Notes: generated from the sequence alone by a model not told the origin. Counted from the first letter of the stretch, positions 1-50,372 are shown. The stretch: 55,512 nt of DNA from Catajapyx aquilonaris (GCA_000934665.2 KZ538092.1:186001-241512); one strand, 5' to 3'. Made by a program: numbers and translations.

Positions 1-4348
<4,348 letters not shown>

Positions 4349-6638
4349 CGGACGTCGTGGATTGGTGGGACAGGGAGTTGGAGAAATGTGAGGTGTAGGA
4401 AGGAAAAGAAGGCAGTGTGCTGGTGGGGGACGGAAGGGGAAGTTGGAGTGGAGAGCAGGGAAGGGGAGGAGGTGGGGAAGAGCTGTTGCTGTTGCAAGGG
4501 TTGGTGGTAGTGCGATAGTCAACCATTGTTAATGCAGATTTCAGGCAAGGATTAGTGGAACCATGGTACCCTATTTTTATGATGGGTTTTACTTCGTGAC
4601 TTTTGTTTCACTTTCTTGACTTTGCATTTACTGCGAGTACAGCCAGGTTTGCAATGATGCAACTTTTTTTTTTTTAATGTACCAGTTGTGGTGTTATAAG
4701 CAAGGAGCAAACAACTGCTGTAAAGTTAAATTTTATTGTGTGGTACATGATGCCTAAGTCTCTGTGCACCTAAATGCTGAGTGGTAAAGAGGCTGCATGT
4801 GTTGCAGCAGCATTTATTAACGAGCTGACCTTGCTGAAAATGACCAGACTGTTTACACAAAAAGTGACTATGACAATATGAGTAATGTAGTGGTACTGTT
4901 AATAATTCGTGATGGGATCACAGGGACTTTCGCTGCATCATGTACTCAAGGCGTTGCTTGATTTCTCCCAAGATGTGCATGGGTAACGTGTGACCAGATC
5001 AGTGTCTTTTGAGTTTTAGAGCCGACTTTTCTTGCATAACGCCGTCCATTTGATTCTGCAAAGAAATATTATGTGGCATTAAACTTGGCTTGAAATTGCG
5101 CTTGAAGTGGAGCTATACATACAGTATAATTTTTTAAAGAGGGAACCCTGGTTAGGCATTGTTGTAGCTGGTTGCATAATTGGGTTTCCTTCACCTGCAT
5201 GTTGCTTATTGAAGGAGGTAGAGTACAGACCAAGTAAATACTGTTGATCAATTGAGGCATGCATTTAATTTTTCTCCCTATGCATTTGAAGAACCATATT
5301 GAAGTTTAATTTTTTTTAAACTACATTCTTGTACAGAATGTGTGGTTATAAGTCAAGACTGCTCCTTTAGTTGTGATGTCCTAATTGGATAGACGAGAGA
5401 GTAAAAGTAGCTGTTCAGGTTTTAATCTGGTAACTACTACTAGCGTCAGGAATGTTATGGATAATAAATAATGACTGTGACTTAATGTAGCATGTTGATG
5501 ATGAAGGATTTTGATCTAGCATCTCTCTCTCTCTCCCCCTGTTGTGTCCGATGGTAACCCAATACTTTCTCTCTTTTAACTGGAGTCGTACTTTTGACTG
5601 TGATATCTAATTGGAAGCCCTGGTTATAATAGAGAGTCCATTGATTCAACCCTGCGTCTGGCAAGAGCACAAAACCTGCCAAATGGAATTCCTTCCATCT
5701 CCGTATTTAATGGAGTTGCGGGGGAACCGGATGACACCATCCTGTACAGTCCTAGGGAAATCTTCCCCATCAATCGCAAAGTAGGGGATATAAACCTTAC
5801 CCAATTTTCTCCTCCTGGTGACAAGGAAACAGTTTGATCCCTGTGATAAAGTGTCCCAGCACAATTACGTTGTTTTTTTTGTGTGTGTTTGTGCATTTGT
5901 TTATTCCTAAGTTATATGGTAATGATTCTGTTTCTCCGAGCGGACAGAGTGGGTGATAACGAGGAAGGAAACTAGTGACCAATGTATTGTTAGATCAGGT
6001 GACTTTTACTGTCACTTGTAACCTTGACTGCTGGTACTTGTTATTGTGCTGTAAATATACTTAATTCATTTACCTGTCCTTGTCCCCATTTTATTGTGCC
6101 ATCACCTTGCATTTCAGCGACTAGTGGAATTTACTCCCGAAAGTTCTGGCAGGAAGTGCAGAAATTTGCTGACAAAAGCGTTTATGCAGTTATGTTTGGC
6201 CCATGTAATGAGCGACTTGCGGAAAATAGAACCGATGGTAAATTTCAGACACTATATGTTGGACGTGACATTTAAGTGCCACTAACTTTCGAACATGGGC
6301 TTCGGAGTATATGCCTACTACTTGGGTGGCATGATCCAATAATGAGTGCAATTTATTTCTGTCATTGTGAAATGCAGGCAATGAGGATTTCTTAATTATT
6401 TTATTTTGCCGTAGTTGGCTGTTTCACCTCTTGCATTGCTGAAGATGCCACCAGCGTGATCTGAGTTGACGTCAGGACACCCAAGCCCGACTCCAATTAG
6501 ATCATTTTAAAAGCACTTTGGACACAATTGGCATTAATGCGTGTTTCACCAATTTTTTAACAATTACTGGACTTGGCTGTTATATTCGTTTCCATTATAG
6601 TGAACATTTTAGGAAGGAAAATGCATGGACCGACTTGT

Positions 6639-6777: not shown

Positions 6778-9115
6778 ATGCTTGCAAGGATGGTTTTAAT
6801 TTGTGTCGTCGCATCTGGATGTCTCGCCCCTTGCATCACCGAAGATGTCACCCGGATCATCAAAGTCGGTGTCAGGGGCCCTCCGTTGGGATCTCTGTCA
6901 CACTTTTGGACCAGCACTGGCTTCTGGTAATGGACAATTAAGTTTTAGGGCGACATAACATGGATGGCACGCATGTACTCCAGCTGATTGAACAAAGTGG
7001 TTGGCACTTTACTTTGGGATTTAATGCATCACTGTACATGTCACTGATATGATCGTTTGGAGGTGTCAGATGCATAATGTATGATTTTTGAAGCCCACCA
7101 GATCCGCACCAGAAAGCATACCAGTTTATGCTTGGTCCAGATATGAGGATGAATCTGGCTCTGATCAGTTCCCTTCCTGGAGATGGGATAAGCCATGTTC
7201 GGATGCACTGGCTGCTTGACCTTATCACAAGGTCGGTGACTATAGTTCAGAGGGCAATGGTCCCTCTAATTTTACTGTATATTATTTTCCTGCATTGAAT
7301 TCACAGGGAGCAAAGCCGATACAATTTCGAGCACTTGGATTCACTTCTGGATTGGATGAACGATCTGAAGATGAAACCTGGGTTTGAACTCATGGGAAAT
7401 CCATCCAACTGGTTTTCAGATTTTGAGGATTCCAAGCAAGTTGAAGAATGGAAAAAGCTGGTTCTGATTTTGGCCAGTAGATACATAGGTGCGGACACAT
7501 TTCTATGCCCAAAATGTGATTTTACAAGCATGTACTGTACAGGTAGATATGGACTGGATTATGTAAAGGACTGGAGGTTTGAAACCTGGAATGAGCCAGA
7601 TCACCACGATTTTGATGGACTGAATTTTACTCAGGAAGGTATATGTAAACCACTTCCAATTACTGTATACTTACCTCCAGCTAATTAAGTCTCCTTATTC
7701 TGCAAAAAGGCTTCGTCAACTACTACGATGCGTGTGTCACAGCATTGTCATCGGTCCATCCCAGCCTCCAGTTGGGATCCCCTGCCGGATCATGCCATCT
7801 GGACAGATCACCCCTGTGCTGGCACCTCCTGGAGCACTGCGATGGACTTCCTGATGTCATGAAGCCCACTTTCATCTCTTTCCACAAAAAGGGACAAATG
7901 GAGGTCCAGTCAATCATACAGAAGGAGTTGGACACAACTGAACGGATCCGATTGCTCTACCCGAATTTAAGACATGTTCCTGTCGTCAACGAGTGCGTAT
8001 GATCTGTACATGTTGAGAGCTTAACTAATAATTAATTTCAGTGAAGCTGACCCTCTGGTGGGCTGGTCACGTCCTCACGACTGGCGAGCCGATGTCAGAT
8101 ACGCGTCTCTTGTAGCTCTCAGTGTGATTTTGCACCAACAGCAGATCATTCGCAAGAACATATCCCTCGCTTTCATCAGCAATGACAACGGGTTTCTCTC
8201 TTACCATCCATTTCATTTTGAACAAAGGACTCTTTTGGCCAGGTATATGTGACACCCATGTGTGGAATCTTCACGTGTTGTCCTATCAGGTTTCAGATGA
8301 ATCTGACCAAACCGTCTCATGTGCAGTTCATCCGGAAGCCTGTGTTCGCATCAATGGCTTTATTATCAATGATGGGCAATAAGGAACTGCAGGTCACGAT
8401 TCGACCTGACCCCGGGTAAGGCATGGAATTCCATAATAATCTGAGAGTGATCAACTGGGAGTTACAGATCGATGCAAGTGATGGCCACGCAGCATCCGGA
8501 CGGCTGGACCATTCTTCTCGTCCGCAACGACGGTGTCCGAAATGACTCTGGCGATATCGTCAAGACGCGTCTGATTCTACAGGGATGCTCAGCGGAAATG
8601 TACGGTTCGGTGACATATGCAATAGACGGAAGATGGAATGACCCATGGCGGGAGTGGAAGGCCATGGGGAAGCCTGCTTTTCCGTCCAGAGGTCAACTGG
8701 CTCGGTTGAGGAAATTGGAGGGACCTCGTCGCGTGTCAATGGTGCAGAAGATGAAGCGATGCAAGTGGAATCTGAGGCTGTCATTGCCCAGCGTGTGGAC
8801 CGTGGTTGTTTGCAAGAAGGGTCCGGATCCACCTGGGCAGGTGTCCGGACTGATCGCCATCAACGTCACCTTCAATGACGTCCTTCTCCTCTGGGATGAC
8901 GCCCACGTGTCAACGCGGTAGGTCCGCAACTTGTCAACTCAGTGATGCTGTGCGGTGACACGCCTGTCAACCCCCGTCGTAATTAATAATTGATCTAATC
9001 TACAGATGCATCCAGACCTACATCGTGGAACACTCGGTCAGACAAACCGGGGAATTTCGCAGGGTCAACAGACACCCGGTCATTTACACATCATATCAGC
9101 GCACTATACTCAAAG
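6778..9115 (+). CDS. IDUA: Alpha-L-iduronidase (GH39); terminal exon not located
   Basis: Exons 6778-6926, 7094-7231, 7307-7488, 7543-7638, 7710-7992, 8042-8242, 8290-8415, 8468-8917, 9006-9115. Signal peptide, then FWTSTGFCPP, VRMHWLLDL, PGFELMGNPS, acid/base motif FETWNEPD, nucleophile motif NDEADPLVGW, FEQRTLLARFQMN and a C-terminal FN3-like start (PPGQV...LLWDD...RCIQTY). An alternative in-frame ATG lies at 6748. Confidence 0.93.
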
Positions 9116-13499: not shown

Positions 13500-16400
13500 A
13501 TGACCATGGTGGTTCTGTCTCTCTTGCTGGCCATGGCTGCTGCGGCGTCTGCGGCGTCCACGGCGTCATCATGCGAGCCCGATAAACTCACCGTATACAA
13601 AGTGATGCTCAACACCTTCTGGACCAGAGACAAATTTCCGAAGCAGTTTCCAGAGTGGAGACCTCCTGCGCAATGGTCCAAGTTGATCGGTAAGTCTCTA
13701 ATGTCAGATTTCAACCGAAGTACGATTGATAAGAATTGAATTCAGAGAGGTTTCCACAATATTTAAATTTCCTTTGCCCAGACTTACTCTTAATTTTTTG
13801 CCCCATACTTCAGATGAATTTTTTGGAGTATAGTTGCAATGCACCTAATACCGGATTGATGTATGGGTAATGCGATACCATGTGCGTGAATGGCTAACGA
13901 GAGCTTGCAGCACATACGCGCATAAGTAGAAAAATGTTTGCTCAACGATTACTTGTAAGCATCAAGTTACGTCACATTTTTGTTAACGGCTGCGAAAGTT
14001 GTCCCCACATGAATCTTGATAGCAACAGGTGTATATGCAGATTTTTGTTTTTTTATTTTCTCGCGCGGCGTACACACCCCCACATCAATAAAATATGTAC
14101 AGAACCGTGTCGACATCGAAATATGTCTTCATTAGCACCCTTATCAGCCAGGAGTGGTCACATTACCCTGAAAGGAGTGATCGGAACCAAAAGAAACGAG
14201 CGGACAAATTACAATCGTGGTGACAATGACGTACATGACAAGGTTCAAAGGAAACTGGTCTCGACCTGTTTGCCACACTGCCAAAATCTAGATAGACACC
14301 TGAGGGTGGAGGGGGGGACAGGAGACAGAGAGAAAGAAATGCAAAGACATTTAGTACTAATAGCATTGCATTGTGGAAAGTAGGGGGAGTCATATTGGGT
14401 GGAGCAATGAGAGGAGGCAATTGGAGCACACCTGATGACCTTCTCTTTGGTCACCCTTCTCTTTTCGCTCCTTGGGCTTCCTCAGATGCCTGCTTGTTCC
14501 ACTTCTTTATTTTATTTCCCCCCCCCCCCCCACCCATCAGTGTCTGACCCTCCCTCCTTCAAAAACCATGGTTGTGAACAACTGGTCCCAAAATAAATGT
14601 CCCACACTCATCCTATTCCATTCTGGCTACTGATAGTAGCCATCTTTGTTGTGCTTGGCAGACACTTTGGCAGGGACGACGACCCTACCTGACTGACACA
14701 TTCCTGCGAGATGACATTCGGTCGGATTTTGCAGATTCTCCTATACGTATACGCCTTATGCAATATCCTTTTTTATTTGCATCCGGGAGTCAGCCTTTGA
14801 GGAGCCGATTCAGACATGCCTTTTTCTTCCTCCAAAATATCTATTTCTCCACACGCTGCTGGCACGCTTTTGTACGCCAGCAGAATCTGATAAATTATAT
14901 GATATTCTCAGACACGACGCTTTCGTTGCGTCAGGATTCCCACGTATACAAAAATGATCACGAAGGTTTTTGGAGACGTAAAATGTTTGAATACACGCCG
15001 AGATAAAAAGGACCTCAATTTTGGCATAAAGTAATACAAATGGAAAAATTATTTCTAGCTTCTTCAGGCATGTAGATAGGGCAAGATCATCTTAGCTGTC
15101 ATCTCGAGAAAGAGTAGTGACATAATGCCAATTTATTCAAATATGACTCGATTAATTTTGTCGCAATTCATTTTCACAGGCAATAAAAATTGTTATTATT
15201 TGCTCTAATTCAGCTGTCCGCATGGGATTGTGTTTCTAATTTTTTTGTATATTCAATCAATACTATTTACTATGTGAATTATTGTAGTAAAATCTTACAT
15301 GAGTTCTGAAAGTCGCTCAAAACGAATTGCAAAAATATTTCACCGAGCATGTCACTTTCCGTATAGCTTTTGGCTCCGGTCTTGACTGCGTGCTCGGTTT
15401 TTGTGGACTTGTCAACATATTTTGTTTTTCCGGCCTTGCATGCGGTAAATATTTACTCGTTGCGCAGGGACACGCGGAAGACGACTCATCTCACAAAGTT
15501 TCTCAGAGAGTTTGCGGATGAGGGTGTCCCTCTCATAAAAGGCCCGAGCCGCCTTGCTCCAGACGGAGGCTGACTCATTCCCCTCCACTGCTTGGGACAG
15601 CAGGCATTTTCAGGTCACTCTTTACAGCTCCTCCTATATATGTTGCACTCTCCCAAATATCTTTTGTGCCACTGGACTTGTGTGTGTCCTTATGCAGTTG
15701 CGCTGCTCAACCTTCACACCGTCAGAATGACGTGACGCATCTTTACAGAGCTACAGGATTGTTTCAAAGAGGCGCGCATCCTTTCAACAGTTACATGACG
15801 GCCTTCTTTCTCTTCTTCTTCTTCTTCTTTTTTTTGTATTGCTGCTTTTAGCTGGGTTTATTTTGGTAGCTTCTGACGGCTATATGTGGACAAGTCATTA
15901 ACTTCGGAAGTTATGTGGCGATTTGGTACGCCCGATAAATTATTTTGAGTCTTTCATTGCACTCTTTTTTTCGTCCAGACATTTTAGATGCAATTTTGAT
16001 TGATGACTAACTTGCCTTGTAATAATTTTTTTTGTTAGGTCGATCTCATGATCGAAGCTATGTGCTGTTTCGATTGGGACAGAAGGCGTCCAAAGGCCTG
16101 AAGGTGTTTGCAGAGAATGGACAGTCGGACGCCCTGGACGCCCAATCTCAAGGAGAAGGCGGCGTCTATGATGAGTTCAACGCGCCGCCGATCACTACAG
16201 GCGGAGGAAGAACCGAAGCCGAATTTTTCATCGATGGAAACCATTCCCGGGTAATAAAGAAAACTACCGCATTCTCTTCCCCATATTTTATTTTTCCAAG
16301 GACATACAGCCGCGCACAGCTAGACAGAAAAAAAAAACTATTCGAGAGATTCTGGATCGTGACAAGAACACGTTGCACAACAGGCAGGTAACAAGACTAT

Positions 16401-19168: not shown

Positions 19169-21078
19169 TCACCATCTAAAGTATGACTTGAGTGTGATGC
19201 ATGATGGCCCTACGCACTGCTTGCTTTGGTGCAGAGCTGGGCAGTCTTTTCCACCTCTTCTTGACGGTGCTACAATGTCCCTGCTTCTGGACATGCTTCC
19301 AACACCGCATGTGTGGCTGCAAGATGACCAAGGTGACCACTCCGACACGTGGCAGTCACGTGGTCGACCTGAAACATTGTTGCTGGTTTACTGGACTCAA
19401 CAATGTGGAGAGTACTTACGTTTCAATTTCCTTCCACGACGAGGCTTCTTCCGACGAACCACCCACATGTCCTGGGAGTCGTTAATGTCGTTGTAGATGT
19501 CGTTAGGATGGTGTTCCTCATCGTCGACAGCACCGTGGTTATGTTGTATGTGATGGTGGTGGTTGGGACCACCAGCTTGTTGGAACACCCCGCTCAAATA
19601 ATACTCCTTGACTTTAGTGAAATGGAACGCTGCTATTGGAGGCAGCTCTTTCTTATCCGGGTAGAAGAATGAGTTGGCCGGATGTTCCGGGTAGTGAGCG
19701 GTCAGCCTGTAGATATTCTCCTGCGGGTTGGATGGCCAGTTCGGTGCGGTGAAGGTGTACCCTGCGTCTGTCCCTGCGTCTAATGGACCCACGTGGATGA
19801 CCTCCGCGTCCAACCAGTGTCCGTCCTGGCAGAGGTCGAAGCTGTCCACTCCGACGAACCAGTCCGGGGATGGGACGAGTCGGACAGCCAGGGACACCCT
19901 GGAGTGGTTGCTGTCCAGGAAGAACTCAGTCTCTGTCCTTCCAGCACCAGTGGTCACTGGAGGCGCGTTGAACTCGTCGAAAATGCCCAGCTCACCCTGT
20001 GATTGGGCGTCCAGGACGTCCGATTTGCCCGATTCAGCAAATTCCTGAAGGCCTTCAGACGCCGTTTCACCAACCCGAAACAGAGTGTATGAAGTGTCGT
20101 GGGAACGACCTGAAAATGCAAACACATGTCGTAAGGCGCATTCAGCATTCCTCGCTCAGAAGCATCGTTAGAACTCCCAAGTTAGAGGCGTTCTAAGTAC
20201 ATACATACGCTGATTTCATATTATTCGGTGTTGACATTGCAATTTTCTAACAACTGCATCAACCAGAGTGCAAGTGACGTCCTATAGCTCGAAAAATAGC
20301 ATTTCCAGAGGTTGGCCTCGCTTCTAGGATATACAGTTAGAATATTGCAGTATGCACTGTGCTATCCATATCCCTGTACAGTATATAGTGTCACAACCAG
20401 TATTGCGTAGGAGGAAAACGGGAATGCCCAAAGCAAGCACCTGCATATCAAAGGCCTTTGTTTCAGGGTTGCTCGAAAATCACTCCTTCTGCCTACACCT
20501 TTTTTTAAAGCAATGAAATTGGAATGAAGCAAAAGCAATCCAGTGGGGCTCATCCAGGTATACACACACAATGTTGTTTTTCCCTCAGCAGCCAAAAATA
20601 ATATTTCGAGCCGTTTCTGCGAGGTCGACGAGCTATTTTGCGAAATAAATGGCTAGTGCAAAATGTTTCACGCAGGGACAAACTAGTTCCGGGAATAATA
20701 ACGCTGCTTAGGACTGGTGTAGGCGGAAGGGAAAAAAGATGACATGCACTAATCATACCAAAAGGGACGGAATGAGTAATGATATCAGAGCTGAATGTGT
20801 GAGGCCGTTGCCCTTCGAGAGATGCTGCAGCTTTTGAAGGCCACACACCGTGCAGATAAAGGAAGAAGAAAAATCAGCGGAAACTTTCGCTTACCAACTA
20901 GTTTGGACCACTGTGCTGGTGGTCTCCAGAGAGGATACTGCTTCGGGAACCTCTCTTCTGTCCACATGGTCTTCAGGACCACCCGGTACACGCTGAGGGC
21001 ATCGGGTTGGCAGCCTCTTTTGCACTCGGAGAGGTAAAGCACAGTCAGAAGGAACCAGAGGACACGGAGGCAGCACAT
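19169..21078 (-). CDS. SPON2: Spondin-2/mindin-like protein, paralogue 2
   Basis: Exons 21078-20895, 20109-19420, 19368-19169. Signal peptide, [44 protein letters not shown] and TSP1 DCHVSEWSPWSSCSHTCG; ends SYFRW*, like SYFKW* in paralogue 1. Confidence 0.92.
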
Positions 21079-36376: not shown

Positions 36377-39300
36377 ATGAGCGAGGGCCGCGGGACGGGG
36401 ACTCAGCCTCGCTTCCCGAACCGCGGTGGCCACCAGTCTGACGCCTCTCCTGACCCGAACACGCCAGAGGAGGAGATGGGGGACGTGCTGGGAAAGGAGG
36501 AAGACAGGCAGGGAGCCAGGGAAGGGGAGGAAGAACAGGAGGTGCGTTTTTTCATTCTATTTGTAATGAGGGGGGAGAGGGGAGGGGGGTAGGCCTAGTC
36601 CATGGAACAATGCTACACATTTTATTAGTTTTAAAAATATATATTACATTTGAATACACAAACGGAAGTGTTTCCGGAATATGCCGCAGACAAAATGGAA
36701 ACTGATGCGTCGAAGTTCCGTCATGTGGTTCTTCAAAAAGTTGACACATTATGCAATGTTTGTACTGGTTGTACACGGTTCAAGTTCCAATAATAGTGCA
36801 CATTCGTATCTGACGGGGGAAATAAGATGCATGGGCATACACTGAGGGGGGTAACCACTTTGTGGAACCGGCTTGGAACCCATCCGGTTCCGGGAACTGG
36901 TGTACACTTTTTTTGTGGAGTTGTTACCCCCCTTAGCATACACTGTACTCCCGATTATCCGTGCTAATTAAATGCACGGGTGTCGCCGATGATTGGGAAA
37001 CAGATAATCGTAGAAGCCGTAAAAATGAGCTATTCAGAGGTTTTAAACTACTGTACATAGTGTATGCTGCTTTAAATAAGGTTTAATCAAAATAATCAAA
37101 ACTTACCGTAGCATTTTATAGTTTGTCTTGTGGAAAAGGTCTTATATTTTTTTTGTTTGGGCGACAAATTGGCAATTTTTTGGGCGTTTGCTTCGTTTTG
37201 GCGATGCACGGATAATAATCTGAAATGTAGATCATCCGCATCTTGATAACCGGGAGTACAGTCTAATATCTTGATTGACATTTTTGGAAAATAAATCGGG
37301 ATGAATTTCAGTTACTAAACACGATATGAGGTCTTGGGCATGTGAAAATCTGCCCATGCAAATTCGGACACTGTGACAGGAGCCTAGATATTGCATTACA
37401 GTATTTATTAGGCCAGTCAGTACAGGAATTTTTAAAAAGAAGTAATTTGCTGAGGAATTCCAAGCCTTCCTGCTGTATAGTAGGTATGAAACAGTAGAGG
37501 GCTGTGTGCCAATAATATGGTAGTCATCCATTACATCAAGGGTGCTTGAGTAGTTTATGACAGGATCCAGCTTCTACGCTTTACAACACTGCGAATATGA
37601 ATACCTCTCTTGACCCTTCCATGACAGCACTCATAGTGTGGGTTTTCCATCTTTATGCTAAGCCTCCTGTTAGCAGCATGCCGTTGGGATTCTCCTGCCA
37701 GCTTTCTCGTGATTTTCAATGTTACATGTTCTGGACAGATTCTGGTAATGTTAGCAGGAGGACAAAAATTCACCCATATTTTTATGCATACTGTCGTTCC
37801 TCTTAACCACATTAACTTTATTTTATTCTGTCTGTATATTACTTTGCAAAATTCACTTCTCCAATGTGAGGTGAAGAATGAGTGTCATTAAAGTTTTAGT
37901 CAACTTTTCTGTGGCATAATTGCTGTGGCCTTTCAAGTCTGAAGTCTCGGACCTGAGTGCGATACTCATTCGACAGAAGAATTTTTCACAGGGAGAAGAG
38001 TTTCAATAGGTTATCTCCATGTTCATGTGGATTTTCATGAATTTTTTTTCAATATTTCTCCCACTGTCCAATCCATCATTAGCATCGGCGTATAATAAAG
38101 TCAGCCATTTAAAAGAGGATTTCCTAGTAGGCCACGTGCTCGCCGTAGGGTAACCTGTTGTTGTGTTTGAAGTTTTATCATTTAACCTGTGCATGTAATA
38201 CTTCAAGTGGAATTTTATTAATATCATATCAAGTGTTGAGGTTCGAACTGATGTGATTATATCGCATTACAATTAACATATGACTTGCACTTGGGATCCA
38301 GGTTTGTTGCCTTATCAAAAGGCACCATTCTATTTGTTGGCATGTCAATGAACTTTGTAACACCGACTTCACTATCACATTTTACATAACATGCTATCAG
38401 CTGTTTGTACATTGAAGCATGTTTTCTTGCCATAACATGGAAGATGAAACACTAGACAGCTTTGCAGACTAAGGAAGATTACCCTAACATTTTTGTTTGG
38501 TTGGTGGCTACAGGGTGAAGAAGAAGACCTGATTGAAGAGAGTTTGATAGAAGAAGTGACGCTGGCATTACAAAATATGGCAGCAAATGAGGACTCCTCG
38601 TCAGAAGGTACGCCTGAAACGCCACCCGGATTAGAATCGGATGAACACGAGGAAGAGGAGGATGAAAGTGGAGATGATGAAGATGGAGAGGAATCAGAAG
38701 AAGAGGAAGAAGTGGGTGGAATGTCTGCCAGAGGGGAGGCAGAGGGAGCTGCAAGTGACAATGCAGATCCTAGTGATGATGAGGATGAGAGAAGTGATGA
38801 AGGTGATTCTGATGATGAAGCATCTGAATCAGGAACGGAAGATTCTCATGGGGTTGACAGCCAGGAAGAGGAGGTATACAGGCTCAAGAAAGCTGATGAA
38901 GCTAAGGTAATTACCTTGATTTCCTGTTTATTAGTTAACTCCATCGTCAATCCAAACAGATAGCTTTTTTGCACCAAGTGTATTCGCAGCACTTTAATAT
39001 GGCAAGTTTGGACATTATGACAGAATTATTTTTCTAGGTTCAGAAATTTTGTGTAAAATATTTTATAGTCTTCTATCAGCAGGTTTCACTGTAATTCTTT
39101 GCAAAAACCACTTGTGTTGATATGCAAGTATAAGTTGTGTTACACATTAGCACACATTTACACGTTGCATGTTGTTGATCAGGGCATGGCTGTGGAGCCA
39201 ATCCAAGGTGCTGCGTTGGGTGAAGAGATGGCACAAGTCTGTGGACTTGCTGTTCTTGCTGGGGTCAGCTTAGGAGAGGAGAAGCCAGAGGTTGACGGAG

Positions 39301-42300
39301 TAGGGGAAGGTGTGGATGAGGACGCAGCAGATGAAGACGAAGTATCATCTACTGCATCCACCACAATAGCCACTCCTCCTGAAAGTGCTTGGAGTCAAGA
39401 TAAACCTTGCCTATGCAAAGCTTGCAGGGAGCGCAGGTACGTTTGAAAAAAATCTTTGTCGCAAGGTACACTCGAACAATAACGATTCATGAGGAGTCAG
39501 TCAGTGGAATAAACTGTGATACGTGTGATATATTCCAAGACTTGGCTGAGGAAATCTACAGAAATTCATGGCCAGAATAGCCAGCATCACAATGAAACAT
39601 TTCTATGCTTGTTGTTTACTGCAAGACACTGCTTTTGTCATTCAGGGAAAGGGCCTTGGAGTTGGAAGCTGAATTGCTTCAGACTAATGCTGACTGGCTG
39701 GAGCTCTGCGGCCACGTAAGGTCCACGTATTCCCTGGCCTTGGAGGGTGCTTTAGAAGACAGCAACCGCTCTGGGGACATCCCTGACGAGACTGTCATGA
39801 GGAACTTAGTTCATAGGTATGTTTTGCAGCAGTTGACATTTTGCAATGTTTGTTGGAATTGGATTTGCATCTAATTTTTGTGCTTGCATTTGGACAGGCT
39901 GTGTGGTCATGATCCTCATGAGCTGTTTCGTCGACTGGACAGGGAGGTCCAGGAGTTTGTCGTGGATGCCAAGATGAAACTTATGAAGATGATTCATCAG
40001 GAGTCATCTGCACCTGTTTCTGGCTCCAAGGCGACTACAGGAGGCAGCCCCACTAGTAGTAGTGTCCTTCTCCCAACTCACCTTGCAGAACGCTTTATGG
40101 AGAGCCTCCTGGACAGTTACGATAGGCTTGGAGAGGCCAGTGCCAAGCTGGGACAGTCTCTCCAGGAGCTGGAGACCTGCCACCTGGTCAGGAACTTCAG
40201 GCTTACTTGGGACCTACACACGAAGCACCTCTTCCAGGCATACCTCTATTCTGATCCTGTGCTGCAAAACCAGCTGCCCGTCTTTGTGTCTCAGGTAAGG
40301 TGGCATAAAATTAGGATTAGGATTTACTTTTTAAAACATGCTCATTCTACTATGGTCACTTCGGAGAGGAGAAGGGTTACTGAATGGTGGTTCCCAAGTG
40401 ATGAGTTCATTGCTCTCCATAAATGACGTGTTGGGAGTTGGATCGCTAGGACTGATGGGAACAAGCCATTCTGCATTTCTTGAGGACAAGTTGAACTATT
40501 GTTGGAGAAAGTACTCCCATTTGTACACAATTCAAGTGCCTGGCAAAAGAATGCTAGCAAGTATTACAGGGAATTTGTCGGACAACTATTTTGCTTTGAT
40601 CGCTGATGTTCATGGTTTGAGTGTGTGTATTAGGTCAGGGAAACCTAGAATTGCAGAACTGAGCCCTATATAGATATTGGGTTGAAACTCATGGATGTTA
40701 TTGACCATTTCAGCTGCGAGGTAGGTTGACCTCCAAGGACCAGAAGAGCTACACAGACCTGGTGCACCGGTACCTGACTTTTGATGATGACATGAATATG
40801 ATTGCTGCTCTCTGGAGGAACTCAGATCTGCTCATACATGAATACAAGTAAGCCAGATTACTTACTAATCAACTTACTTAGAGATAACTTGAAGGTGCGT
40901 TTACATGTGAGTGATTTGATAGCGTGATGCCATCGCCGAGCGGTGCATCGCTGAGGAACCTGAGAAACCAATATTGTTTGAGGTGAAAGAAACAATCGAT
41001 TTTTGCCTCAAACAATACTGGTTACTCCAGTTACTCAGCGATCCACCGCTCGGCAATGATATTGCGCTATCAAATCACTCACATGTAAACGCACCTTACC
41101 TTAAATAAGAGATTACTTACTAAGGCAGCATGACTTCTGTGCTCTGAATGGAAGCAAGTGACACCTAATTATGCAAAATAATAATGATTTAACTCTAAAA
41201 ATAAACAGCCATTTCCCACATGATGAGGCATCAACTCCAGATTTTGTTATGTTGGAAGTTGGATCGCTAGGACTGATGGGAATTATTCTCGCTGTGTGCA
41301 ACTGAACATTTGCAGTATTTGGTTCAGAAAGTCATGCTTGATTAGTTTATGTTACTTTTGTAATGCATAGAGAGAATGCAGGGTTGCCTGGTCAAACATT
41401 GCTGATAATTAACCCAGACTCCTAGAGCAAAGAAAAACAGTAGAATCCTGATTACGTGACTCTGTGGAACAATAGGTAAGGTTGGAAGTAAAGCCAGGTA
41501 TTTAAAATACCTCCGCCATACAGTGTTGGTAATTTAAAGCCATTTTTGTCCTATTCTTTTCCATTGCATGTGTTGTTTGGTGGGGACTGTATCGGAGTAA
41601 CACTGCAAGATGAGAAGTTTATTTTTGTTACGTATCGTAATTTTATTCCCCACAGTGGACAGTTTAATCTTGGTATTGATCTGAAATAATGAAGGTTTTT
41701 CATAGGTTGTATTCAAACATCTTTGCAGCAATAAGCAAGCGTCACTTATGCAGCGGCAGCAGTTCCTGAGGCAGGAGTGGGAGGTTCTAAAAGCCCAAAG
41801 GCGTCTCCTGCAGAAGGAGATGCTTGGGAAAACTGCAGGGGGAGGGGATGTGCCTGACTCTTTCCTGTCCTTACTTAATGGCATGACCCTGGGAGACGGG
41901 GAAAACAAAGTGGAGGATGGAGCAGCCTCCTCCAGAGAAGATGGTGGTGGTGAGCAGGAGATGGGGATGGGAGTGTGTCCTGCATGTAACACCAGGCGGT
42001 GCCCATGTGATGAGTGCACCATCAGCCACGTGCTTACCTGCAGGGTTCTGCCCACCACAAATACCATTGCTTCGCCTGCCTCCTCAGTTGGGGATGGTGC
42101 CAATGCAGCAACACCTTTCTCAAGTGTGACCAGACTCTCCCACTGGAGGTATGTGGCGCAGTTTAATTTAGTAGATTAGTTTAAATTTCCACATTATGTC
42201 AGGATGGGCTCATCTGCATGAATGAACAGACGAGGATTTCAGGAATAATATATGAAGGAAGGACTTGAAAGCCAAGACAAAGCACTTGAAAGGAATTTCC

Positions 42301-45300
42301 CGAATTTTTGGAGCCCTGGGGAAAAAAATCAGCTTTTATCTCAAGCTTTCCGCATTGGATCGTGTGAACTAGATACAGAATATAGGGTAATTTTTGGACT
42401 CCTGCATAAAGAAGTGGAATTGTGTTAGAATGTAAATCTAGTAAATGTGTGCAGGACTTTTGTTATTTTCGCGTGCAGAATCATATTGATGCGAGTGTGA
42501 TACTGCTCCAGAATTCATCCTCTATTGTTGATCCTATCCTACAACAAGACTGCCATGCACGATTGTTTTACGTGCCTTTTGTTCATGTTGTATATCTTTT
42601 CTTATTGTAGCCTGAATGGGGACCGGGGCTCCAAGAGTGACCACCCTCATCATATGCAGCCCTACCCCCGTCCTCACCTGCATCACTCCCACCCGCACCA
42701 TTACCACCACCACCATCACCACCCCAGACCTCCCCCCCATTCTTCCCTGCATCCTTCCCACCTGCCCCCTCACTCATCCTCCAGCCACACCAACCCAAGG
42801 CCTAATGATCCTGCAATATTCCTGCCTTCCTCCTCCGCAGCAACCATCCCCAACCACCACCACATTCACCACAGGAAGCCACACAATTCTTCATCCATCT
42901 CCTCATCTGCTGACTCCTCCTCCGAGTCCTCAGAGTCCCTACCACCCAACAGGGATGCTGATGGAGAAGAATCTGGAAGGGTAGACGATAAGATGGAAAG
43001 GGTGGAGAGGAGAAAAGCAACTGCTGTGGGGCACGGGAGGCAGCCAGTTCAGCAGCAGAGTTGCGAGTGCCATGTTTGCACTGCGCCATTGGTACCTCAT
43101 GTAAGTGACACCTAATTATGCAAAATAATATAATCATTTGACCCTTTAAAAAACACCCATTTCCCACATGATGAGGCATCAACTCCAGATTTTGTTATGT
43201 TGGAAGTTGGATCGCTAGGACTGATGGGATTATTCTCACTGTATACAACTGAACATTTGCAGTATTTGGTTCAGAAAGTCATGCTTGATTAGTTTATCTT
43301 ACTTTTGTAAAGCATATGCAGGGTCGCCTGGCCAAACATTCCTGATAATTATTAACCCAGACTCCTAGAGCAAAGAAAAACAGTAGAATCCTGATTACCT
43401 GACTCATGGAACAATAGGTATGGTTGGAAACAATAAGTGTGAGGAGCAGAGCAAGTTAAGCAGTAGACAAAAATGCAGTATGATTGTCACACTGACAGGT
43501 TTATCTGATAATAATTACAATGCGAACAACATCCAGTTTAATAAGGAGAAAATTATAATGCAACAAAGTAAATTTTGATGAACCCTGCATCAAGCATGCA
43601 CACGCAAAAGAACTTTACTAATTGCGTTGTCAGGACTTGACTGCTGAGATTCAATATTGCACATGATATCATTTGAAGCTATGGACAACGTCAATTTTGG
43701 TAGTTCACTTAGATCAACTTTTCAAGCTATACTGACTCTTGTCACTCATTTCCAGATGGACCTTCCGCCCAGCCTGTGCGAGTGCCATGCATGCTTCCAG
43801 ATGGGCAACCCTCTTCCTCCCGCCAATTCTTTCCTAGGTCTACACCCTGGAAGCTTGCATCTGTACCCTCATATTCATGGTGTTTCCAGCCCAACCGCCA
43901 CTGCCGCCACTTCCAGTTCTATGCCCAATGAGAGGGGGTCTGCTACTGGAGAATCAGATAGAGGAAGCAATACTTTTCCCCCTCCCTTGTACACCCTTCC
44001 TCCTCCTCCGCCACCACCTCCACCCCCGCCGCCTCCCCCTCCCCCACCACAGCCCCTGACCCCAAAGTCACCCTTGTTGTCCCCTCTGAGTCCTCAGAGT
44101 CCCCAGTCCCCCATGTCTCCCCAGTCCCCTCAGTCCCCGTTGTCACCTCAGACACCACCTGGCGATCCGCCCCCTGGCACCGAGGCCTTTGCCCAACTGG
44201 CTGCTATGGCTAGCACAGGAACCCAGACACCACCACCTGCTCTACCGCCACCGCCACTTCCACTCAGGGCAACAGCTCCCAAACCACCTCCGCCGAAGCA
44301 GGCTGTGACCCGTGCATCGCTCAACTCAACTGCAAGGAGCACGACTCAGCCAGCAGCAAAGCCACCAACTGCAGGTCACCCTCAGCCCCATTCTTGTACC
44401 AGGGCTGCTCGGAATGCCCCGAAGGTGGCTGCGGCTGCAAAGAAAGCTGTGCCTCAGCCTTCTGGCGAGTGTAAACAATGTGAGTGCACTTTTGCAGACA
44501 ATGGTGGCGAATTAAGTTGTAGGTGCTAATACAATGGCATTTTTCTCATTGTCTTCTGCGAAGGCGGTGGTATGGAGTGTGCTGACGTAGATGATAGCTC
44601 TAGCATGGAAGACTCGGGCTCAGAACAGTCAGGGTCCACTGCATCGACGCAGAAAGATGGGAAGCATTGCAACTGCTGCTACTGCGAGGTCTTTGGACAC
44701 AGTGTGGTAAGTGCATTGCGTACCACTGGTTACAATGGGATATTCCACCATGATTTCCATGTGGCAATTAAATTAAACTTGGATCAATTATGCAGGTGTA
44801 CACTGCAAAGGGTATGCAGATTTAATGGGCACTTATTTGTTGCTTTAGGCCTTAGGGTGCTGACATGTCATGCAGTTGAGGAATTTGACTTATTGCCATC
44901 ATTGTGTTAACCCCTTTTTTTTTCTTTTCATATAGCCGGCAGTGGCTCCAGTGAGCCGCAACTATCCAGAGATGCGGGAGCGCCTCAGGCTTCTCTTGAC
45001 CAAAAAGCGTGCCCAATGCAAGCAACCATCGGCACAACAACCTCAGCTCCAGCCTATGCAAGGTGGGGCCACCCCTTCAGGGTCCCCAACAACTGCTCCT
45101 GGGGCAGTGCAAGGAGCAGCATCTGCAAATAAAGTTGCAGGTGCTGTTTCCGTACCAGCTCAGCCTGAGAACATACCAAATGCAACTGCAAGGAGTGGAG
45201 GAGATGGCAGAGAGGATGAGCCTCCTGAGGTCCACCCTTCAGAGTTGAAAGGACGAAATCACGATCCACGTGATCTGGAATCTCTTCTGGCTTACATTGA

Positions 45301-48300
45301 GGGCACTAAGAACAAAAAGGCAGAGGAGGAGGAAGCAGTGTACAATGCAAAGAAAGCAGCCAAGAAAGCCCGACAGAAACAGAAGAAGGCAGAAGAAAAG
45401 GTGAGGCGAGAACAGCAGGAGGCTGAGGAGCGAGCAAGGCGGGAGAGAGAGGCCAAGGAGCGGGAGGAGCGAGAAAGGCGAGAGAGGGAAGCCAGAGAGA
45501 GAGAGGCTCGACTCCAGAGGGAAAGGGAGCAGCAGCGGGAGAGGGAGAGACAGAAACAGGCCAAGAAGAAACCACCAGCACCATCGTCGGAAGTCACCAT
45601 CACTCTGGTCAAAAATGGGAGAGGCGCCAATAATAAGGGGAATGCAAAGCAACCCATCACTCGCAGCCTGCAAGCATTTTTCGATCAGCCTGGCGGAAAA
45701 GGGAAAGAGGCTAGGGGAGCGACAATGGCTCCAACACCACCATCGGTTGAGAGCCAGTCAGCTGCAGAGAAGGCACCGCAGATGGTTACCATCAAAAGGG
45801 TGATGGAACCGAACAGCAGTGAACCAACCGTTACCATCACACTCAAAGGGGAGACGCCTGACCAGGACCAGGTGCTCTTCACCCTCGTCAATGGTCAAGG
45901 TAAATGTTACATATCAGCTTGATTACATTTGTGACATTTCACTGCGGGGAAGAACCTTGGAATCGTGTAGATTATGTCAATATCACACATGTTGTAATTA
46001 CAATAGCAGTTAGGATTAACTGGTTCCCAATGATGATTCCCCAATTCCAGAAAAATATTATGCTGGAAGTTTGGATCGCTAGGACTGATGGGAACTTTGC
46101 AATCGCGGCATGTTCTAGTTTCACATGGCTCGGTTTTTAGTTTGGCATCAAAAGGATGTCACGTGTGGCGAGATTGGACTCGACCCAGCCACCTACCGCA
46201 GTTAGATTAGGTAGCCACCCAGTGGAAACAGATTTGCACACCGAACTAGCAGGCTTGACTTGGTGCCAAGAAGCAATAAGCAGGGAGGAGAGAGAAGAAA
46301 AAAAAACAGATGACTTATTAGGTGCAGATATGGACTGGTCAAGTTATTTGATGTTTCGCTAGGTCTAATATTAAGGTGGCTACGTTACGTACGTATTCTG
46401 TCATCTTGCAGTGCTTTACACACGAGGACTAGAGTTGCTTTTCAAGTGGTCTTTTATATGCTTTGGTGTAACTGTCACTTAAGACAATTTTCTGATTATT
46501 TATTAGCACAACTGAGCTCCGTGTCATGCTCATTAAAATTATTGCAGCTGCTGATGAGTAATGACATAGTGAGAAAGCAGCTTCGACATGAAGGTGTTTC
46601 AACTTCATGCTGGAAGGGGAAAATATGCAGGGTAATAAATGTGCGACTCTCGAGACTTTTAGTAACACGATAGCAGGCATCCTCTACGTCAAGAGAGGGA
46701 ATATGTTTGCAAGCGAGGATTTTTACTTATTTCAGTGCAAAAAGCTCTACAGGTTAACAATGGTGAAGGTGGAAAGGGGAAGAAGAAGAAGAAAAAGAAG
46801 GCCACCAATGGTGTGGAGGTAGTCGCTCCGACTCCTCAGTCGAAAGCCAACCAGAAGGCCCAACCCAAGGTCCAGGCTAATGGCAAGCAGCAGTCGAACA
46901 AGGTTCAACCCAACAAGCAGCAGCAGCAGCAGCCAAAGCCGCAGCCCAAATCCCAGCCTAAGGCAACACCTCAACCCCAGCTGAAACCTATTCAGCAACC
47001 CAGGGTCCAGCTGAAACTGCAGCAGCAACAACAGCAGCAACTGCAGCAGCGCCCACCACCTCAACAACAACCTGTACCAATTCCACAGCCGATCCTACCC
47101 AACCACAACCACCCGCCATTCTTCCAGCCTATGCAAAACCACCACCACCATCACAGTAGCGAGCCATCTCCTTTTGTGCTGGAAAACCTGAAGCTGCCTC
47201 CAGGCATCACCATCACCAAAGTTGATGGCCCCCCTCCTCCTCCTCGGTCCCTCCCAGTCCGCCCCCATCCACCACCTCAACCCCAGGTGCCGGCAAACAA
47301 TCAAAACTCAGCTCATCTTCAGAAGGGGATGCATCCGTTCATGTTCCCTGGAGGAATGGGCATGGGTATGGGCATGGGAATGGGGATGGGAATGGGAATG
47401 GGTATGGGTATGGGTATGGGGGCGCCCAGTGTGATAGTTGTTGACACTGGACGACTTCGAGATGAGAAGGATCGGCAGAGAGGTGAGGCATTATCTGCAG
47501 AGTTGCGCCAAGCCACGGAATTGTTTCAGTAATGCATGACCCATTCCCGCTTTACAGAGGATGAGGTTCCAGAGGCTGGAAAGAAGAGCAAGAAGAAGAA
47601 AAAGAAGGCCGACAATGCCATGGGCAACAATCAGCAATCAAACACTGCCAGCAACCACCACCAGCAGCAGCCTCAGCAGCAGGGTGGAAGCAACAAGTCA
47701 AAGTTGATGATCAATAGCATTTCCAAGTCCAGCCAGCCAAACCTGCCGAGCAACAAGCGGGTTCAAAACGGTCAACCACAGCAGCAGAAGCAAGCGCCCA
47801 AGCCTATGGCTAATGGGAAACAAATGAATGGCAATATCAGAGGTGGCCAAGTGCCATCTACTATGCAAAATGGTGGGTTACGGAAAGTGGAGGAGAGGAA
47901 GGGCAAGCAATGCCCCCAAATCCAGCAACAGCAGCAACCCCAACGCATGGTCCCAAATGGGCGCATCCCTTCTGCTAAAGCAACCAGCTTTAAGCAGCAG
48001 GGTGCCCCAGACAAGTTCCAGCAGAGGCAGGCAATGGTCAACGGTTTCGAGCAGGCCAGGTCGGGTGGGGGCAAGCACCACCACCTATTGGCTGATTTTG
48101 GGGCAGTCTTAGAGGCGGCCACCATGGCAGCGGCTGCTGCCGGGGCCAAGAAAAAGAAGAAGAGGAAGAAGGGAGTTGGTCCAAACAGCAATCTTGATGA
48201 CTGGAACTCTGTTGGTGAGTGCCACATTGTACCAGTTATTGATTACACTGGCATTGTCATTGCATGGGAACATTACCTGGAAGAATAACCGACAGAGAGA

Positions 48301-49666
48301 TTGAGATTAACTGGAAGATTGCCATAATTGCCGGTTCGTATGTCAAGAGTGAAGAAGCCAGTTGTATCTAAATGTAGACATATTATGCGTAGGAGTGATG
48401 TTGATTCCTTCCGCATGATTAGGTATAAATCAGACTTATGAGTCACTTAACCCCATTCTCGAAATTTCAAACGTATTCGAACCACGTCTCTGGATTCTTC
48501 GAATCATCTCATTAAAGTTCCCCCCACAGTCATTTAATTAGATCATGAATCACCAACCGTCACACTTGTCTGGAGATTATTCCATGTTCTTGCTCGGCAC
48601 AGAGAAAGCTTCACCATGAACTACCAATATTACCAGCTTGCGATATCCTTTGGAAAGTGCTTCATTATTGCTCCATGTGTGACGGACCATAACCCCCATG
48701 TTAGTGACGCATAAATGGAGCTCTGAGGTTTTATGGCCATGTGCGTCTCATTACGCGATCATCAAATTTAGCCATGGCAAGTGGATGAACTTTAAAGCAT
48801 TTTGGTTAAAATTAACAAGGCTCTTACAGTGAAATTATGAAGTTTCTTAAAGCGATCCTTGGGGTTGTGATTTGGGGACAAAGATCATGCCTTGCATTGA
48901 GACGTTTGCAAGTTTCTAGAAACGACTCGGTGTAATTATTAATATGAATGCATTTTCTTGTAAATGAGGAATTGTTCGGTGGCAAAGTGGACACGAAGCT
49001 GTTGCAATACACCAAAGTTCACCAGGAAGGATATTTTTAGTCCCTTTTTTTTTGCATGGTAATTCCTTGCAAACCCATGAACAATAGGCCCTATTTCTGT
49101 GCTGCTTGTTGATTAGGTAACACAAGATCACAAACAATGCCGCTTAGAATTCAGTTGCAAAACTTTAGTGCCTGTTATTTCTGCACCGTGTTGGGCAAAT
49201 CCTGCTTTTTGCAGATGGGGCTTATTTCAAAACACAAATTCAGGAAAGAGGTGTTTTTTTTTTTTTACTGCTCAAGGCAATGTGTGCAAGGTCTAAAGTA
49301 CTGCTCTAGACTAAGAGGTGGCAGTACCAGTGGTGCTCTTTGAATATGTGGAGACGCACATTAGGGAATTTCTTCACCTTGTATAATATTCTTGCCAATA
49401 TGAAACGAGGTGTTATGCTTTTCATCTTCTTACATTTATTTGACAATTTCAATATTATTTTTCTCTTACCAATTACAGACAGCGTATTTGCCCCAAAGGA
49501 AGACATAGACCTGGAGAATGGCGACATTGATGATGACGAGAAGGAACTGGAAGCGTTCAAGCGCTTCTGTTTCAATTCGGTGCCATTGGCCAGGAAGGAA
49601 AAGGTCAACCTCAATTTAAAGGATTTGGTCATCAAGAAGAGGCCAGGGGTTGCATGTTCCTCTTGA
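36377..49666 (+). CDS. FAM193A: FAM193A-like protein, 14 coding exons
   Basis: Exons 36377-36541, 38514-38906, 39183-39436, 39646-39816, 39898-40294, 40714-40847, 41729-42148, 42611-43100, 43756-44479, 44564-44706, 44936-45899, 46736-47482, 47558-48214, 49479-49666, all phase-consistent. FAM193 motifs: RLCGHDPHELFRRLD, CNCCYCEVFGH..APVSRNYPEMRERLRLLLTKK, DPRDLESLLAYIEG, KKAAKKARQKQKK and the C-terminal DSVFAPKEDIDL...EKELEAFKRFC. Confidence 0.92.
36941..37263. mobile_element. Tc1/mariner-pogo-type MITE (323 bp) with TA target duplication, in FAM193A intron 1
   Basis: TA|cactgtactcccgattatc ... gataaccgggagtacagtc|TA (17/19 TIR match), plus a subterminal inverted copy (attatccgtgc / gcacggataat). 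Confidence 0.75.
40390..40462 (+). ncRNA. Intronic box C/D snoRNA-like unit, copy 1
   Basis: Terminal stem gttccca/tgggaac, box C GTGATGA 40398-40404, guide ttggatcgctagga, box D CTGA 40452-40455; lies in intron 40295-40713. Confidence 0.85.
40892..41097. mobile_element. 206-bp whole-length palindromic MITE (PIF/Harbinger-like ends, tentative)
   Basis: Perfect 33-bp TIR aaggtgcgtttacatgtgagtgatttgatagcg, with imperfect pairing continuing for ~95 bp to a short central loop. No clean 3-bp TSD. Confidence 0.8.
41154..41487 (+). repeat. ~330-bp intronic duplication, copy A (copy B at 43101-43429)
   Basis: Near-identical by eye from aagtgacacctaattatgcaaaata to ggaacaataggta.ggttggaa; includes snoRNA copies 2 and 3. 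Confidence 0.92.
41213..41282 (+). ncRNA. Intronic box C/D snoRNA-like unit, copy 2
   Basis: Stem ttccca/tgggaa, box C ATGATGA 41220-41226, internal hairpin, guide ttggatcgctagga, box D CTGA 41273-41276; lies in intron 40848-41728. Confidence 0.85.
43101..43429 (+). repeat. ~330-bp intronic duplication, copy B (starts at the GTAAGT donor)
   Basis: Aligns to 41154-41487. Confidence 0.92.
43162..43229 (+). ncRNA. Intronic box C/D snoRNA-like unit, copy 3
   Basis: Stem tccca/tggga, box C ATGATGA 43168-43174, box D CTGA 43221-43224; box-to-box sequence identical to copy 2; lies in intron 43101-43755. Confidence 0.85.
46023..46095 (+). ncRNA. Intronic box C/D snoRNA-like unit, copy 4
   Basis: Stem gttccca/tgggaac, box C ATGATGA 46030-46036, internal ttccag/ctggaa hairpin, guide ttggatcgctagga, box D CTGA 46085-46088; lies in intron 45900-46735. 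Confidence 0.85.
47353..47421 (+). repeat. Coding hexamer repeat (GGN ATG)11 encoding (Gly-Met)11
   Basis: Direct read within FAM193A exon 46736-47482. Confidence 0.95.
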
Positions 49667-50372
49667 AGAGCTACCACAGAAAACGCTTAATTTTGGTATC
49701 TGATGAAATTTTTGTGATTATGCAGGTTCAGGAAATTTTTCTTTTCGTGTTTGTTTTGCTGCAGTACATGCTGATCAGTATTTACGAAAGAAGAGAAAGG
49801 GACGAGCCGCAATCGTCCCCTTGCTCTTTTTAATAAACGACACTACGCAAAACAGTTTTAAAGTAAGGGAGACACTGTCCAGGTAAAAATAAAAGTTGTG
49901 TGTTCATAAGGATTGTAAAAGTAGGTGATAGGTTAAAACTTCTTAGTGGCCCTTGCGCCCCCGCTCTCCCGGTTTTGCCAACCACCAAGTTGTACACTTT
50001 TATATCCAAGGTGACTCGGAGATCGCATGATGTGAAGGTGAGAGAGAGGAAGTTCCCTCCTCGACTCCCATCTTTCGCTGCCCACCCCCGCCTTTCCCCA
50101 TTTCCTGCTGCTCCCAATCCCTCCCCAATGACTAGGGGCAGCACAGCTCCGTTTGCATTCATGTTATGGTCGTTTGAAACGGTGTTNCCCCCCCTCCCTT
50201 AGTGTGTTGGCAGATAATTAAAGTGAAGTTAGGGTGCACTTTGATCCTCTGTTGTTTCCTTTAAATTTCCCTCCTTCAGATATTCAATGAGCTTACAGAT
50301 AATTGGTGCAAGATGTTCAGAAGATGACACACACGATGATTTTCTCTAGTAGTTTGTAGCAGTCATGGAATC

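Follow-up and report, generated by a model that had tools for sequence, protein, structure and literature searches.

Probable box C/D small nucleolar RNA genes with one invariant putative guide in the introns of a FAM193-family gene of Catajapyx aquilonaris

The stretch of DNA analysed here, hereafter the window, is 55,512 nucleotides (nt) long and comes from Catajapyx aquilonaris (GCA_000934665.2 KZ538092.1:186001-241512); it is read on one strand, and positions are counted from its first letter. It carries a FAM193-family gene on the plus strand, and four introns of this gene each hold a short unit with the boxes, stem and length of a box C/D small nucleolar RNA (snoRNA) gene (Table 1). These four units are probably an uncatalogued family of box C/D snoRNA genes, lying in sense orientation in the introns of the FAM193-family gene. 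The family belongs to no Rfam 15 family. Besides their anatomy and their sense position in the introns, the units share a conservation pattern that fits selection. By analogy with known snoRNAs, their RNAs would be processed from the host introns, assembled into small nucleolar ribonucleoprotein particles and engaged in methylation.

Table 1. Units, host introns and other coding features of the window
Feature	Position	Strand	Details
Unit 1	40390-40462	+	73 nt; 5' stem GTTCCCA(A) 40390-40397; box C GTGATGA 40398-40404; interior 40405-40437; guide 40438-40451; box D CTGA 40452-40455; 3' stem TGGGAAC 40456-40462
Unit 2	41213-41282	+	70 nt; 5' stem TTCCCA(C); box C ATGATGA 41220-41226; D'-like CAGA 41238-41241; guide 41259-41272; box D 41273-41276; 3' stem TGGGAA
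Unit 3	43162-43229	+	68 nt; near-identical recent copy of unit 2; 5-bp stem TCCCA/TGGGA; box C 43168-43174; guide 43207-43220; box D 43221-43224
Unit 4	46023-46095	+	73 nt; 5' stem GTTCCCA; box C ATGATGA 46030-46036; D'-like CAGA; internal hairpin TTCCAG/CTGGAA; guide 46071-46084; box D 46085-46088; 3' stem TGGGAAC
Intron without unit	38905-39180	+	contig joint
Intron with unit 1	40291-40709	+	joint 40290>40710
Intron with unit 2	40848-41728	+	joint 40847>41729; also holds inverted repeat 40892-41097
Intron without unit	42147-42608	+	contig joint
Intron with unit 3	43101-43755	+	joint 43100>43756
Intron with unit 4	45900-46735	+	predicted; donor caag/gtaaat 45899/45900, acceptor tttcag/tg 46735/46736
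Intron without unit	47481-47555	+	contig joint
Intron without unit	48214-49477	+	contig joint
Last coding exon of host, FAM193_C	49478-49663	+	joint 48213>49478 in RNA contig
Tankyrase-like gene, upstream	2165-4345	+	ankyrin, SAM and PARP domains; best PDB match human tankyrase-2
Alpha-L-iduronidase-like (IDUA-like) frame, upstream	7299-8918	+	GH39
Spondin_N open frame, upstream	16026-16388	+	on the strand opposite to the other Spondin_N frame
Spondin_N open frame, upstream	19400-20155	-	on the strand opposite to the other Spondin_N frame

The order of parts is the same in all four units: the 5' strand of the stem, (G)TTCCCA, comes first, then box C, 32-34 nt of interior, a 14-mer, box D and finally the 3' strand of the stem, TGGGA(AC). 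Unit 1 has GTGATGA as box C where units 2-4 have ATGATGA, and box D is CTGA in every unit. The 14-mer, TTGGATCGCTAGGA, is identical in the four units and abuts box D on its 5' side, where a guide would be placed. The terminal stems (G)TTCCCA/TGGGAA(C) comprise 5-8 base pairs (bp), and RNAfold predicted the stem in each of the four. Each interior also forms a short hairpin, bordered on one side by a D'-like CAGA (CATA in unit 1) and on the other by a C'-like TGYTGG. For the class we took a terminal stem of 4-8 bp, a length of about 60-100 nt and an antisense element of 10-21 nt on the 5' side of D or D'; the boxes are present in 4/4 units, and the stem and the length (68-73 nt) agree with the class as well. 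The first-pass annotation of this DNA, made from the sequence alone, had described four units on the sense strand with a (t)tccca/tggga(a) stem, RTGATGA, CTGA and the same 14-mer before box D, and interiors that have diverged but keep a short hairpin. The four were located where it had put them, on the plus strand, and both our dissection and the folding bear out this description in every unit.

The architecture is peculiar to these units within the window. The 14-mer occurs exactly four times, always on the plus strand, and no further match was found on either strand of the whole window when up to two mismatches were allowed. In dinucleotide shuffles (n = 100) the mean number of occurrences was 0.36 and the maximum 2, so that 0/100 reached four. 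A scan of both strands of the 55.5 kilobases (kb) for RTGATGA followed at a distance of 40-110 nt by CTGA, the two being enclosed by a terminal stem of 5 bp or more, returned exactly the four units (mononucleotide shuffles, n = 100: mean 0.25, maximum 2). A degenerate fifth copy was not found in the window, nor was any copy on the opposite strand or outside the introns. As signs of retroposition we looked for an A-rich 3' tail and target-site duplications. A-rich tails were not found in the 3' flanks of the units, which read CAAGCCATTC, TTATTCTCGC and CTTTGCAATC, and no flanking direct repeat was seen; the units thus do not look like retroposed snoRNA copies (snoRT).

The introns of the host were read from GT..AG joints on the plus strand in spliced RNA contigs of one sequencing run, over positions 38000-50000. 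The units lie in sense-strand introns of a spliced host, three of them in introns confirmed by contigs and the fourth in a predicted one. No RNA contig bridges the intron of unit 4, which was predicted from its GT..AG borders, and the reading frame is continuous across the predicted junction. The earlier description of one unit per intron on the sense strand is therefore secured by contig joints for units 1-3, while for unit 4 it holds on the predicted intron. Unit 1 lies 99 nt from its donor and 247 nt from its acceptor. The host itself is a FAM193-family gene, with the FAM193 C-terminal domain (PF15914) in the last coding exon (E 4.4e-23, 81.3 bits against a Pfam cut-off of 27). A database search with this exon matched 49 FAM193_C proteins at E<=0.001; the best named matches are from arthropods and molluscs, the top one being 82% to Ladona fulva, and no vertebrate is among the matches listed. 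Two protein searches with an N-terminal exon of the host gave no match, and the ESM Atlas gave low-confidence, unrelated clusters alone.

The relationship among the copies is uneven. A duplicated block of 337 nt joins 41156-41487, with unit 2, to 43103-43429, with unit 3, at 90.5% identity (blastn, 337 columns). The family is therefore made up of three old lineages and one recent duplicate (units 2/3), and of the "four paralogues" of the first-pass annotation the number stands but the independence does not, since units 2 and 3 come from one recent duplication. Within the duplication, 1/70 columns differ in the unit against 31/267 in the flanks (one-sided Fisher p 0.004, a test that counts each gap column singly, which flatters the result). 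Units 2 and 4 are 82% similar over 72 nt (41213-41282 against 46024-46094, blastn), and the similarity is confined to the predicted RNA. The likeness of unit 1 to the others is limited to the 3' 33-35 nt. Across the copies, guide, box D and 3' stem (23-25 contiguous nt) are 100% identical and box C differs in its first purine alone, the interiors are 53-65% identical, and the 100-nt flanks on either side align at 46-54%, which we took as aligner background. This is the pattern expected of selection on the C/D kink-turn and one guide, and it would be hard to obtain from neutral decay or gene conversion. The identical 3' module, diverged interiors and flanks at background also agree with the earlier claim that conservation is restricted to boxes, stem and guide.

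The borders of the duplicated block are worth describing in themselves. The block starts at the donor of intron 43101-43755 (G/GTAAGTGACACC; 43099-43112), and its copy in intron 40848-41728 keeps a decayed donor-like GCAAGTGACACC (41152-41165). It would appear that the snoRNA spread when the first part of one intron was copied into a second intron.

As the first-pass annotation had proposed, the window was compared with Rfam 15, and no family reached its gathering threshold anywhere in it. When matches were ranked by E-value over 40000-46500, two of the 11 listed touch a unit. Unit 4 is matched by snoR53Y (RF01279) with 20.3 bits (threshold 43, E 5.1), and a match to snoZ168 with 18 bits (E 7.1) overlaps unit 1 at its 5' end. 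A 106-nt search of unit 2 with the laxest filter gave three matches, all of them to box C/D families on the plus strand: snoMe28S-Gm1083 (RF00528) with 16.6 bits, snoZ199 (RF00200) with 13.5 and SNORD57 (RF00274) with 12.5, against thresholds of 47-48. One of these matches extends over the entire unit, and the other two are limited to its 5' 45-48 nt (E 0.7-8). The alignments to snoR53Y, snoMe28S-Gm1083, SNORD57 and snoZ199 match the units in stem, box C and box D, whereas the guide regions do not align and the scores are far below gathering. To judge from these alignments, the likeness is a resemblance of class and not family membership. Separately from the units, a weak match to the Drosophila snoMe28S-Cm3227 lies at 43499-43583 on the plus strand of the unit 3 intron (28.1 bits, threshold 43, E 0.5). 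Its boxes are off-consensus (TGATAA and TTGA), with changes that could still pair mutually, and its guide regions are unlike the model; it may be a chance match in AT-rich sequence or a decayed second snoRNA.

Neither the guide 14-mer nor its complement was found as text in the searched literature. To judge by titles, no paper in that literature links FAM193A or FAM193B to snoRNA hosting, in agreement with the earlier remark that FAM193A had not been described as a snoRNA host. In the accessible part of the host-gene supplement of the zebrafish snoRNAome (PMC11880993), which names host genes, fam193 does not appear, and the box C string ATGATGA is likewise absent from that part. The accessible parts of the supplements of PMC5513064 and PMC6984369 held nothing relevant. 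Viral contigs were also scanned for the 14-mer and gave, among the matches listed, chance matches.

If the units behave as intron-encoded C/D snoRNAs do, the host pre-mRNA would be spliced and the intron lariat debranched, and exonucleases would then trim the intron down to the terminal stem and the C/D kink-turn. The kink-turn would be bound by SNU13, NOP58, NOP56 and fibrillarin, leaving an RNA of about 68-75 nt as the product. The invariant 14 nt would pair with a target and place a 2'-O-methyl group on the A opposite the fifth guide nucleotide. The predicted target would contain 5'-CCUAGCGAUCC-3', fully UCCUAGCGAUCCAA; under the D+5 rule, the nucleotide to receive the methyl group would be the A in 5'-UCCU[A]GCGAUCCAA-3'.

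A target-like site was not found in the window itself. For ribosomal RNA (rRNA), we assembled a set of 145 eukaryotic ribosomal DNA (rDNA) loci (260,541 nt), consisting of 116 metagenome loci found by a 5.8S motif and 29 contaminant contigs found by a motif of the large subunit (LSU). One locus alone, L203, covers small subunit (SSU) positions 8-1831 and LSU positions 1-1769 (Rfam). The set of 29 contigs overlaps the LSU of L203 from about 600-800 onward, and several of these contigs hold 2000 nt more on the 3' side of the motif (blastn). In viral contigs, the 5.8S motif retrieved 13 loci, none of them rDNA. Two partial candidates came out of the rDNA set. The LSU candidate CCTAGCGATCC, complementary to guide nucleotides 2-12 (11 bp), is present in two of the 18 loci that cover the site (L259, L273), and the variable base is T (14) or A (2) in the remaining ones. 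The SSU candidate CTAGCGATCCG, with 10 bp and one G.U pair, is present in L158 alone, or 1/13 anchor-motif matches from 11 loci. In zebrafish and human rRNA (PMC7668251), a non-exhaustive scan by eye anchored on TAGC gave a best pairing of 8-9 bp. On the D' side, the antisense stretches differ between the copies; they have few perfect 11-nt complements in rDNA, in one locus each, and no 10-mer complement recurs in three or more rDNA loci.

Two features of the rRNA material deserve mention beside this search. The 28S stretch GGCC-T-NN-CGATCC varies among eukaryotes at two adjacent bases, the variants being TAT in 14 loci, TAG in 2, TAA in 2 and TCA in L263, and zebrafish and human have TCA; the variable site lies about 355 nt on the 3' side of the LSU motif in L249-L277 and in columns 4391-4405 of supplementary data 3 of PMC7668251. 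In addition, at least 29 contigs deposited under bacterial or archaeal genomes (L249-L277) carry an exact 23-nt motif. Nine of these align to the eukaryotic L203 LSU (blastn) and 19 show the conserved LSU site, while a 24-kb contig of a Bryobacteraceae metagenome-assembled genome has two copies of the motif (L275, L277). The motif is presumably specific to eukaryotic 28S rRNA, and the contigs look like eukaryotic contamination in prokaryote assemblies.

Several results weigh against a functional box C/D family and have to be set beside the anatomy. The RNAfold energies of the units are unremarkable (z -0.5 to -1.2), as is usual for C/D RNAs, and add nothing in support. The units lie 247-640 nt from the acceptors, far above the 60-90 nt at which intronic C/D snoRNAs usually lie in mammals. 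The RNA contigs of the single listed run do not cover the units and are uninformative on expression. In effect, the sample amounts to three lineages, all from a single gene in a single genome. As for the target, no rRNA-sense complement of the 14-mer was found in the 145 rDNA loci at up to one mismatch and two G.U pairs; moreover, when G.U pairs and any register that takes in positions 3-5 were allowed, 302/400 shuffled guides scored as well as or better than the real one. At the LSU site, the zebrafish early-type, zebrafish late-type and human 28S read GGGGCCTCACGATCC, with two central mismatches to the guide that include the nucleotide to be methylated, and the SSU site reads CCCGCGATCC in zebrafish and CCGGCGATGC in human (PMC7668251 supplementary alignments). 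On the shuffle control and the differing zebrafish and human rRNA, both the LSU and the SSU candidates were rejected as evidence of a target. Thus, an rRNA target is not supported by the search, and the family is for now an orphan guide. The first-pass annotation had recognized the architecture of 2'-O-methylation guides; the C/D anatomy stands, but the guiding of methylation by the 14-mer is not borne out because no target was found.

These points bear unequally on the explanations that compete with, or narrow down, a box C/D family. The units might be ordinary rRNA guides for a lineage-specific site, in which case the organism's own rRNA would read GGCCUAGCGAUCC in the LSU or GCUAGCGAUCCG in the SSU. 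That the LSU candidate of 2/18 loci sits in the canonical register beside box D speaks for such a site; shuffled guides reached a perfect 11-mer in this register in 657/20000 cases, and in two or more loci in 63/20000. The neighbouring LSU bases vary among eukaryotes (TAT, TAG, TAA, TCA), and the SSU match of L158 points the same way. On the other hand, the free-register shuffles and the zebrafish and human sequences described above speak against it, the 11-bp duplex leaves 3/14 invariant guide nucleotides unexplained, no Rfam family has the same guide, and the guide core is in none of the SNORD sequences in five of the six supplementary files of the zebrafish rRNA methylation catalogue (PMC7668251). 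We therefore regard an rRNA guide of this kind as rather doubtful. A target outside rRNA fares slightly better, as a tentative and still minority reading: the units would then be a lineage-restricted, multi-copy C/D snoRNA whose host is non-ribosomal and whose guide is directed at a non-rRNA target carrying UCCUAGCGAUCCAA. Messenger RNA, small nuclear RNA, transfer RNA or a pre-rRNA spacer are possible, equally tentative, candidates for such a target.

The units could also be non-functional, either as pseudogenes derived from a snoRNA or as a dispersed short repeat, multiplied through local duplication of introns, with a likeness that comes from recent copying or gene conversion instead of selection. 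In favour of this, units 2 and 3 plainly stem from a recent segmental duplication, the copies all fall within 5.7 kb of a single gene, a setting in which gene conversion could operate, and neither coverage of the units in the single run's RNA contigs nor a target was found. However, units 1, 2 and 4 have no flank similarity and poorly conserved interiors, and yet their 23-25 nt and box C are intact. Gene conversion is unlikely to halt exactly at functional borders in three copies, and a dispersed repeat fits poorly with the absence of opposite-strand or extra-intronic copies in the 55.5 kb and of A-rich tails, so that we consider non-functional copies unlikely. Far less probable still is that the 3' module (14-mer, CTGA, TGGGAA) is an intronic cis-element, for example a site for a splicing regulator, and that the snoRNA look is incidental. 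The strictest conservation does fall in one contiguous block of about 33 nt, and among the many introns of the host only four carry the module. Such an element would leave unexplained the box C and the complementary stem strand that stand 57-59 nt upstream in every copy, the whole architecture is found here alone in the window, and the Rfam matches on unit 2 are all C/D.

A box C/D family thus remains the reading we favour, and it can be compared with known systems. The units are like the intron-encoded C/D snoRNAs of vertebrates (SNORD) and Drosophila (snoMe) in the boxes, the stem, the length of 68-73 nt and the antisense element that abuts box D, and in lying singly in the introns of a spliced host, in sense orientation. 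They differ from these in Rfam scores below gathering (12.5-20.3 against 43-48 bits), in the distance of 247-640 nt from the acceptor and in a guide that matches no rRNA site examined. Multi-copy hosts with one snoRNA per intron are known in GAS5, the SNHG genes, the Drosophila dUhg genes and extra copies in fish and frogs. As in the GAS5, SNHG and dUhg hosts, one guide is here copied over successive introns by local duplication, of which the unit 2/3 block is an instance, but our host, a FAM193-family gene, is long and codes for protein. SNORD115 and SNORD116 likewise occur in many copies, each in an intron of its own; their antisense element is invariant and has no target in rRNA, and they are arranged as long tandem arrays within an imprinted non-coding host gene of mammals. 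Our units share with them the repeated one-per-intron copies, the invariant guide and the logic of an orphan; in contrast, there are four copies here, the host is protein-coding, tandem structure is lacking, and the orphan status comes from an incomplete target search.

If the RNAs are expressed, snoRNA annotation would gain both an uncatalogued family of the box C/D class and a new host. The family would also be a compact case of an orphan guide, with four copies, one invariant guide and no obvious rRNA site, and it makes a testable prediction of the target, the A within CCU-A-GCGAUCC. Paralogues placed one per intron by local duplication, under selection on their boxes and guide, are expected behaviour of snoRNA genes and would not surprise specialists. 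Should the orphan reading be true, it would bring a logic like that of SNORD115/116 outside mammals, in a system small enough to be tractable.

The genes upstream of the host bear on which FAM193 member it is. Of the two Spondin_N frames, the longer is closest to human spondin-2, and an IDUA-like frame and a tankyrase-like gene lie further upstream; IDUA, SPON2 and FAM193A are neighbours on human 4p16.3. From the gene size and these neighbouring genes we infer that the host is FAM193A rather than FAM193B. The name FAM193A given by the first-pass annotation is thus confirmed at the level of the family by the FAM193_C domain, and the choice of A over B is suggested by the size and the neighbours.

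Some further observations concern the host sequence. Its coding exons contain a (Met-Gly)n run from a GGNATG repeat (47340-47430) and a long proline run (43990-44060), and these low-complexity coding stretches also attracted unrelated RNA contigs. The intron of unit 2 contains an inverted repeat (40892-41097) with 97-nt arms that are 87% complementary and 12 nt apart. Contigs pile up on it (bin depth about 126), 11 of them with A>T at 40990, and their ends are loose and run into unrelated sequence. Weak Rfam matches to MIR397 on this repeat were taken as hairpin artefacts. The repeat looks like a dispersed hairpin element of the miniature inverted-repeat transposable element (MITE) kind, separate from the snoRNA family.

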